A stretch of 458 bases of DNA from NCBI RefSeq assembly GCF_003334255.1, contig NZ_QOWU01000237.1. One strand, 5' to 3'. The position numbers and the translations under genes are program-made. Below the pieces are notes generated by a model. It made no database searches, was not told the DNA's origin, and saw only the letters and a list, made by a program, of their open reading frames with translations. Below are positions 1-458 of the stretch, one piece after another; position 1 is the first letter of the stretch; every line of letters begins with the position of its first letter. Source of the stretch: Escherichia coli (GTDB lineage Bacteria; Pseudomonadota; Gammaproteobacteria; Enterobacterales; Enterobacteriaceae).

Positions 1-16
1 AATTTGAGAGACTCAC

Positions 17-34
17 GAACAACTTTCGTTGTTC
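17..34 (-). other. Perfect 7-bp hairpin with GNRA (GAAA) tetraloop in the 23S 5' flank
   Basis: Seen in sequence: 17-23 gaacaac and 28-34 gttgttc are perfect inverted repeats around tttc. In transcript sense this is GAACAAC-GAAA-GUUGUUC. It is not followed by a U-tract, so it is not an intrinsic terminator. Inference: a structural element of the pre-23S leader near the region that pairs with the 23S 3' flank for RNase III processing. Confidence 0.5.
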
Positions 35-62
35 AGTGTTTCAATTTTCAGCTTGATCCAGA

Positions 63-75
63 TTTTTAAAGAGCA
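63..75 (-). promoter_or_regulatory. Spacer boxA antitermination element (Nus-factor binding motif)
   Basis: Seen in sequence: reverse complement of 63-75 is TGCTCTTTAAAAA, one mismatch from the rrn leader boxA consensus TGCTCTTTAACAA. It lies immediately downstream (in transcript sense) of a boxB-like hairpin. Established knowledge: rrn operons carry a second boxB-boxA pair in the 16S-23S spacer that supports processive antitermination through 23S. Confidence 0.7.
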
Positions 76-76
76 A

Positions 77-114
77 ATATCTCAAACATCACCCGAAGAT
101 GAGTTTTGAGATAT
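77..114 (-). promoter_or_regulatory. boxB-like RNA hairpin preceding spacer boxA
   Basis: Seen in sequence: 77-86 (atatctcaaa) is perfectly complementary to 105-114 (tttgagatat). In transcript sense the inner part is CAUC-UUCG-GGUG, giving a C(UUCG)G tetraloop with a short bulge. Its position 2 nt upstream of boxA in the transcript matches the boxB-boxA arrangement. Confidence 0.6.
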
Positions 115-148
115 TAAGGCAGGTGACTTTCACTCACAAACCAGCAAG

Positions 149-224
149 TGGCGTCCCCTAGGGGATTCGAACCCCTGTTACCGCCGTGAAAGGGCGGTGT
201 CCTGGGCCTCTAGACGAAGGGGAC
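149..224 (-). tRNA. gltT/gltU/gltV/gltW: tRNA-Glu, anticodon UUC, 76 nt, CCA encoded
   Basis: Seen in sequence: reverse complement of 149-224 is GTCCCCTTCGTCTAGAGGCCCAGGACACCGCCCTTTCACGGCGGTAACAGGGGTTCGAATCCCCTAGGGGACGCCA. It folds as a cloverleaf by hand: acceptor stem GUCCCCU/AGGGGAC, anticodon stem CCGCC/GGCGG with loop CUUUCAC (anticodon UUC = plus-strand gaa at 188-190), T-arm with GGTTCGAATCC, discriminator G, terminal CCA (plus-strand tgg at 149-151). Established knowledge: matches the E. coli tRNA-Glu carried in rrnB/C/E/G spacers. The specific copy cannot be determined from the window; if the source is E. coli K-12 in reference orientation, a minus-strand Glu-type operon would be rrnG (gltW), but that is inference only. 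Confidence 0.95.
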
Positions 225-263
225 ACGAAAATTGCTTATCACGCGTTGCGTGATATTTTCGTG
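224..263 (-). other. Extended imperfect hairpin abutting the tRNA-Glu 5' end
   Basis: Seen in sequence: outer stem 224-231 (cacgaaaa) pairs with 256-263 (ttttcgtg); inner stem 237-244 (tatcacgc) pairs with 248-255 (gcgtgata); 3-nt loop gtt at 245-247; asymmetric internal loop at 232-236. Position 224 is also nucleotide +1 of the tRNA, so the 3' strand of the hairpin in transcript sense runs directly into the tRNA. Confidence 0.5.
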
Positions 264-395
264 TAGGGTGAGCTTTCATTAATAGAAAGCGAACGGCCTT
301 ATTCTCTTCAGCCTCACTCCCAACGCGTAAACGCCTTGCTTTTCACTTTCTATCAGACAATCTGTGTGAGCACTGCAAAGAACGCTTCTTTAAGG
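225..395 (-). other. Internal transcribed spacer, proximal part (between 16S 3' end and tRNA-Glu)
   Basis: Seen in sequence: lies between the 16S 3' terminus and the tRNA on the same strand. From memory it matches the E. coli Glu-type spacer (transcript sense begins CCTTAAAGAAGCGTTCTTTGCAGTGCTCACACAGATTGTCTGATAGAAAGTGAAAAGCAAGGCG...). Boundaries follow from the two flanking RNA genes. Confidence 0.85.
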
Positions 396-458
396 TAAGG
401 AGGTGATCCAACCGCAGGTTCCCCTACGGTTACCTTGTTACGACTTCACCCCAGTCAT
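396..458 (-). rRNA. rrs: 16S ribosomal RNA, 3'-terminal 63 nt (partial; gene continues beyond the window end)
   Basis: Seen in sequence: plus strand 396-458 is taaggaggtgatccaaccgcaggttcccctacggttaccttgttacgacttcaccccagtcat. Its reverse complement ends ...GTAACAAGGTAACCGTAGGGGAACCTGCGGTTGGATCACCTCCTTA, the conserved 16S 3' terminus. It contains the anti-Shine-Dalgarno CCUCC (plus-strand ggagg at 399-403). Established knowledge: this terminus is nearly invariant in Enterobacteriaceae. Mature 3' end placed at 396. Confidence 0.95.

Follow-up and report, generated by a model that had tools for sequence, protein, structure and literature searches.

The DNA examined here is a stretch of 458 nt, referred to throughout as the window. 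Read on its minus strand it runs from the 3′ end of a 16S rRNA gene through a 171-nt spacer and a tRNA-Glu (UUC) gene into 148 nt of a second spacer. A megablast search of 5426 complete E. coli genomes matched the window in 5426 of 5426, with a median of seven matches per genome, and all 458 bases were found at 100% identity in at least 13 chromosomes; the scope of this full-sensitivity search was E. coli genomes only, so a source in Shigella or another Escherichia species is a less likely alternative. In E. coli FORC 064 the 100% match falls between an annotated 16S rRNA and an annotated 23S rRNA gene, flanked by murI and murB (murI-16S-tRNA-Glu-23S-5S-murB), which is the rrnB position. The 23S rRNA gene follows on the same strand, starting 45 nt past window position 1 in FORC 064 and likewise in K-12, so the 23S gene itself is absent from the window. 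The window is almost certainly an internal transcribed region of a Glu-type E. coli rRNA operon read on the reverse strand, most likely rrnB, an assignment based on position in the genomes with 100% identity and not on the window's own flanks. The features, listed from position 458 downwards, are:

396-458, minus strand: 3′-terminal 63 nt of 16S rRNA (Rfam RF00177, positions 1471-1533 of 1533)
225-395, minus strand: spacer 1, between 16S rRNA and tRNA-Glu, 171 nt
349-391, minus strand: 3′ strand of the 16S processing (RNase III) stem, AAAGAAGCGTTCTTTGCAGTGCTCACACAGATTGTCTGATAGA, located by RNAduplex with the rrnB leader
331-348, minus strand: short linker (..GTGAAAAGCAAGGCGT) separating the processing-stem strand from the variable block
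225-330, minus strand: 106-nt variable block (presumed 'spacer loop sequence', rsl), directly upstream of tRNA-Glu
149-224, minus strand: tRNA-Glu, anticodon UUC, 76 nt, with encoded CCA end (ARAGORN)
1-148, minus strand: in-window part of spacer 2, the first 148 of 193 nt leading to 23S rRNA
76-115, minus strand: boxB-like hairpin (AAUAUCUCAAAACUCAUC-UUCG-GGUGAUGUUUGAGAUAUU), directly upstream of the spacer boxA
63-75, minus strand: spacer boxA, TGCTCTTTAAAAA, an exact match to the consensus TGCTCTTTAANAA (0 expected by chance)
1-71, minus strand: 5′ part of StyR-44, 71 of 107 model positions (Rfam RF01830)

A preliminary description of this DNA had divided it into a 16S 3′ end, a tRNA-Glu and two spacer segments in the standard rrnB/C/E/G layout on one strand. 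All of these parts were recovered with ARAGORN and Rfam, on the minus strand, and the annotated context in FORC 064 and K-12 agrees with that layout. The 23S rRNA named in the same order does follow on the same strand, but 45 nt outside the window, and the operon runs from 458 to 1 rather than from 1 to 458, the description having given no strand. It had predicted that BLAST would return a Glu-type rrn spacer and that Rfam and a tRNA finder would return the 16S end and the tRNA, and had named spacers unrelated to known rrn spacers as the contrary outcome. BLAST matched the whole window at 100% identity to a Glu-type rrn spacer of E. coli, both RNA genes were recovered, and the spacers align base for base with those of K-12 rrnB/G/C/E; with the outcomes as predicted and the contrary one absent, its statement that no novel system is present holds. 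The window is a canonical, already described Glu-type rrn spacer, and this main result is of little consequence, since it amounts to a textbook rRNA operon spacer.

Scans for other kinds of feature gave little. A consensus scan found no sigma-70-like promoter in the window and no terminator-like site on the operon strand within it. The one terminator-like site on the plus strand (237-255) was at chance level (1 found, 0.6 expected) and is the spacer-loop palindrome read backwards. Open reading frames were rejected as coding sequences, all being of 33 aa or fewer and lying within the RNA genes or spacers. Rfam matches to SNORD24, ceN33, mascRNA, Tymo tRNA-like, mir-7359 and mir-743 scored far under their gathering scores, overlapped the tRNA or the spacers and were dismissed as chance.

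The 16S end matches the bacterial SSU rRNA model RF00177 with 61 bits (gathering score 50), terminates in the anti-Shine-Dalgarno end GGATCACCTCCTTA at 396-409 (minus strand), and is annotated as 16S rRNA in FORC 064 and K-12. The tRNA gene, on the same strand as the 16S, was also matched by the Rfam tRNA model (152-224, minus strand; 60.1 bits); its sequence is identical to K-12 gltT/U/V/W, and tRNA-Glu is annotated in the matching genomes. ARAGORN found no second tRNA in the window. In an alignment of the window with FORC 064 rrnB and the four Glu-type operons of K-12 MG1655 (rrnB/G/C/E), both the 16S end and the tRNA were invariant across all copies.

Directly 3′ of the 16S gene, RNAduplex pairing of spacer 1 with the rrnB leader gave a near-continuous duplex of ~42 bp between positions 349-391 (minus strand) and the leader segment TTTATCAGACAATCTGTGTGGGCACTCGAAGATACGGATTCTT, which sits directly 3′ of the leader boxA. 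The duplex energy was -103 kcal/mol, compared with -66 ± 6 kcal/mol for shuffled spacer. RNase III cuts this leader-spacer stem, releasing the 16S precursor. The linker at 331-348 (minus strand) is common to operons with and without the 106-nt block. A different type of transcript reported to cross this region is the riRNA, which originates at an internal promoter within 16S, traverses the 16S-23S spacer and ends near its end, with termination occurring in vitro without Rho (PMC5179076); the riRNA internal promoter is located upstream of the window.

Spacer 2 carries the antitermination signals. The spacer boxA is a Nus-factor antitermination signal ahead of 23S; within the 14.5-kb rrnB locus boxA recurs only once, in the leader, 132 nt upstream of 16S. 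The two differ at one base (leader TGCTCTTTAACAA, spacer TGCTCTTTAAAAA), and the leader, with its boxB-boxA-boxC region, resembles the window in having a hairpin before boxA. The leader copy would act ahead of 16S and the spacer copy ahead of 23S. The hairpin at 76-115 is an inverted repeat with 16-nt arms (88% complementary) that is fully paired in the minimum free energy (MFE) fold of spacer 2 (z-score -3.8); we call it boxB-like from its position relative to boxA and from established knowledge of rrn antitermination.

The last 71 nt of the window before the 23S gene match Rfam StyR-44 (RF01830; 81.5 bits, gathering score 54, E = 7e-13), an element missing from the inventory in the preliminary description. 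The match is approximately base for base over model positions 1-71, and the remaining 36 positions at the 3′ end of the model are missing from the window because the match ends at the window edge. Within the segment a hairpin, GAACAACGAAAGUUGUUC, lies at 17-34 (minus strand) and is followed by GUGAGUCUCUCAAAUU, with no U-tract. In the source publication StyR-44 (Salmonella Typhi npcRNA 44) precedes 23S in each of the seven operons (PMC2943607), in agreement with the place of the segment here. An independent regulatory small RNA encoded at 1-71, as something more than a 23S leader, would fit the Rfam score as well as the 109-nt cDNA and the growth-regulated northern signals published for S. Typhi and E. 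coli (PMC2943607). The same paper, however, describes StyR-44 as processed from longer precursors and possibly only a metastable intermediate of rRNA maturation (PMC2943607); the segment also overlaps the boxA region inside the rrn precursor, and no promoter-like site was found in the window. We therefore consider an independent small RNA very improbable; the segment is the conserved leader of 23S rRNA, catalogued by Rfam as StyR-44. Pairing of spacer 2 with the 23S-5S spacer (RNAduplex) gave a strong core of GAAACATCTTCGGGTTGTG with ACAACGCCGAAGATGTTTT, outside the window; for window positions 1-20, a part in an extended stem of 23S was not robustly supported.

Compared with the K-12 operons, the window is closest in form to rrnB (rrsB-gltT-rrlB), which has the same order and the same lengths (171, 76 and 193 nt), shares the 106-nt block, boxA and the boxB-like hairpin, and is identical at 452 of 458 bases. 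At the six substitutions the window mostly has the base of K-12 rrnC/E; just 3′ of the tRNA, for example, it reads TCACCTGCC where K-12 rrnB reads TCGCCGACC. The exact window sequence occurs in rrnB of FORC 064 and of other natural isolates. K-12 rrnC and rrnE, which carry the short allele, have an identical 16S end, tRNA-Glu, boxB/boxA and 23S leader, and the in-window part of spacer 2 is identical to theirs, but they have 20 nt (CTTGCGAAGCAGACTGATAC) in place of the 106-nt block and thus a 16S-tRNA spacer of 85 rather than 171 nt. Such a mosaic of rrnB and rrnC/E positions within a spacer is as expected from gene conversion among rrn copies, a process whose occurrence between the rrn operons of E. 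coli has been measured in experiments (PMC8022953).

The identity, position, pairing potential and distribution of these elements were observed directly, and established knowledge of rrn maturation suggests how they would be used by nucleases and Nus factors. The region would be transcribed from 458 to 1 within a 16S-tRNA-23S-5S precursor initiated at the rrn P1/P2 promoters. The sequence just 3′ of 16S would pair with the operon leader, and the resulting stem would be cut by RNase III. RNase P would free the 5′ end of tRNA-Glu, and RNase E together with exonucleases its 3′ end. The boxB-like hairpin and boxA would load the Nus-factor antitermination complex anew, and RNA polymerase would thereby stay resistant to termination as it transcribes on into 23S. 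Leftover spacer would then be trimmed off, possibly with detectable intermediates such as StyR-44.

The part of the window that does not fit this scheme is the block at 225-330. The preliminary description had assigned every part of the spacers to known processing and antitermination structures; this applies to the processing stem, the boxB-like hairpin and boxA, but not to the block, for which we know of no demonstrated function, so that its statement that nothing was left unexplained was too strong. The window spacer is the long allele, with the block lying downstream of the 16S processing stem and ahead of the tRNA. It is bounded by conserved ..AAGCAAGGCGT and by the 5′ end of the tRNA, an interval that in short alleles is 20 nt. 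In the alignment the block is carried by the window, FORC 064 rrnB, K-12 rrnB and K-12 rrnG, with 20 nt replacing it in K-12 rrnC and rrnE. RNAduplex placed it outside the 16S processing stem, and no Rfam family matched it, even at E ≤ 10. We take the block to be what Harvey et al. 1988 named the 'spacer loop sequence' (rsl); the lengths of 106 and 20 nt given here were measured by alignment. By its title, that paper (cited in PMC4696680) concerns a K-12 subline whose rrnB has lost the spacer loop, and no description of a ribosomal spacer loop was found in the literature searched.

Of the 5426 complete E. coli genomes, 2791 (51%) carry the block, at 4008 places in all, with between 1 and 7 copies per carrier (median 1). 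The other 2635 genomes have zero copies, and all their Glu-type operons carry just the 20-nt allele. Where it is present the block is highly uniform (at least 99% identical in 2775 of the 2791 carriers). No copy lay on a plasmid in the E. coli genome collection and none was matched among 50,697 records of a phage collection; among 72,556 records of a plasmid collection, the lone match was a 1.41-Mb E. coli replicon (CP061244.1). These results do not support the block as mobile DNA: in the E. coli genome collection it was confined to chromosomes and so gives no sign of being a mobile element.

This distribution bears on whether the block has any role at all. A likely explanation is that it is an old indel polymorphism, neutral or selfish, which has been shuffled among operons and strains by gene conversion and recombination and which forms hairpins without function. 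Its presence in about half of E. coli genomes at variable copy number, the mosaic of K-12 rrnB-like and rrnC/E-like positions in the window, the frequency of gene conversion among rrn copies (PMC8022953) and a patchy taxonomic occurrence all agree with this. That the phage collection has no match to it, and the plasmid collection only the one on the 1.4-Mb E. coli replicon, argues against a selfish element. Against a neutral one stands the comparison with other genera, where compensatory substitutions hold helices together across sequences diverged to 67% mean column identity, which is unexpected for unconstrained DNA.

The predicted fold of the block consists of a small 5′ hairpin, a three-way junction that contains the hairpin GCUUUC-UAUUAAU-GAAAGC at 272-290 (minus strand), and a long two-part hairpin at 223-264 (minus strand) whose final two pairs in the MFE fold take in G1 and U2 of the tRNA. 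The fold has a z-score of -2.8. These two end pairs (A-U with tRNA U2 and C-G with tRNA G1) are invariant in five of five species. When block and tRNA were folded together, the MFE structure had a shortened acceptor stem, with GCGU at the 5′ end of the block pairing with ACGC at the 3′ end of the tRNA; such invasion of the acceptor stem, if formed, could bear on RNase P access.

Relatives of the block were sought in 100,044 species-representative genomes, using the 16S end and the start of tRNA-Glu as anchors with a gap of 156-186 nt between them, and only six loci were found. The same architecture, in a different sequence, recurs in the long Glu spacers of four species, Cedecea colo, Tatumella morbirosei, Limnobaculum eriocheiris and Pantoea stewartii (loci recorded alongside the window block in this comparison: L010:238-437, L007:10226-10430, L008:4825-5029, L011:50-256 and L006:206-400). 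One of the six, an Avibacterium locus, was rejected as a homologue on account of an unconvincing alignment. In the five-sequence alignment (mean column identity 67%), 11 of 32 pairs were changed on both sides and 89.8% of cells were paired, as against 30-49% when partners were slid by 1-3 columns, although the covariation comes from five sequences only and the structure tested was derived from the same alignment. Helices 3, 4 and 5 were 90-100% paired, with 9 compensatory pairs, and single-sequence MFE folds independently gave the same layout in four of the five species. On this evidence, which is thin, the block looks like a conserved structured module rather than a random insertion.

A functional reading can be built on these results, in which the block would be a structured RNA module that tunes RNase P processing of tRNA-Glu or yields a stable spacer RNA. 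In its favour are the architecture shared by four further genera, the double-sided changes and their collapse when partners are slid, the preservation of helices 3, 4 and 5, the layout recovered from single sequences in four of five species, the near-identity of the block among carrier genomes, the fold z-score, and the use of tRNA G1 and U2 by the last two pairs of the long hairpin in the MFE structure. Against it, the block is absent from 2635 of 5426 genomes and its carriers have a median of one copy, which means that it is dispensable; K-12 rrnC and rrnE work with 20 nt instead; a K-12 subline has lost the loop from its rrnB, going by the title of Harvey et al. 1988; the covariation involves five species and a structure taken from the alignment on which it was scored; and spacers of similar length occur at only six loci among the 100,044 species representatives. 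Weighing these, we regard a functional module as rather unlikely, and the neutral polymorphism described above as the probable explanation. The stronger form of the functional reading, that the block is a conserved Enterobacterales rrn-spacer RNA module with a function of its own, maintained as a balanced presence/absence polymorphism, appears more doubtful still; its possible roles would be to modulate 5′ processing of tRNA-Glu or to give a stable spacer-derived RNA. The putative spacer fragment, bounded by the RNase III cut ~33 nt past 16S and by the RNase P cut, would measure ~138 nt in the long allele and ~52 nt in the short one. If true, a functional block would be a small addition to the understanding of how spacer tRNAs mature from rRNA precursors. 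The residual value of the analysis is that a heavily studied region still contains a block without an assigned role, whose helices are apparently conserved in distant Enterobacterales.

A metagenome scan with ARATTTCNNGTCCCCTTCGTCTAGAGG for further homologues returned a single unrelated locus. This was on contig Ga0307515_10001540 (L012:2180-2365), where a pair of tRNAs lies outside any rrn operon; judged from sequence, the two resemble tRNA-Ala followed by tRNA-Glu. The match is a chance similarity just upstream of a tRNA-Glu and is unrelated to the block.

Several individual genomes departed from the general pattern. In NZ_CP010438.1, a derivative of K-12 MG1655, the best full-length match to the window (3478058-3478515) reached only 95.9%, the level of rrnG, whereas rrnB of the MG1655 reference differs from the window at 6 of 458 positions, which suggests that this record lacks a long-allele rrnB spacer. 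The pattern recalls the loss of the rrnB spacer loop in the title of Harvey et al. 1988. Ten window matches fell on records of the E. coli collection labelled as plasmids. We presume that these records, like the 1.41-Mb replicon with the block, are chromosomes that were split or engineered, or replicons with a wrong label, and do not represent true plasmid-borne rrn operons. In E. coli IH5 (NZ_CP168269.1) the sole window match, at 4832249-4832325, covered the 16S end only (query 1-77) and adjoins a gene for an Ail/Lom outer-membrane protein. With one match there against a median of seven per genome, the rrn operons in this 'complete' assembly have probably been collapsed or truncated.
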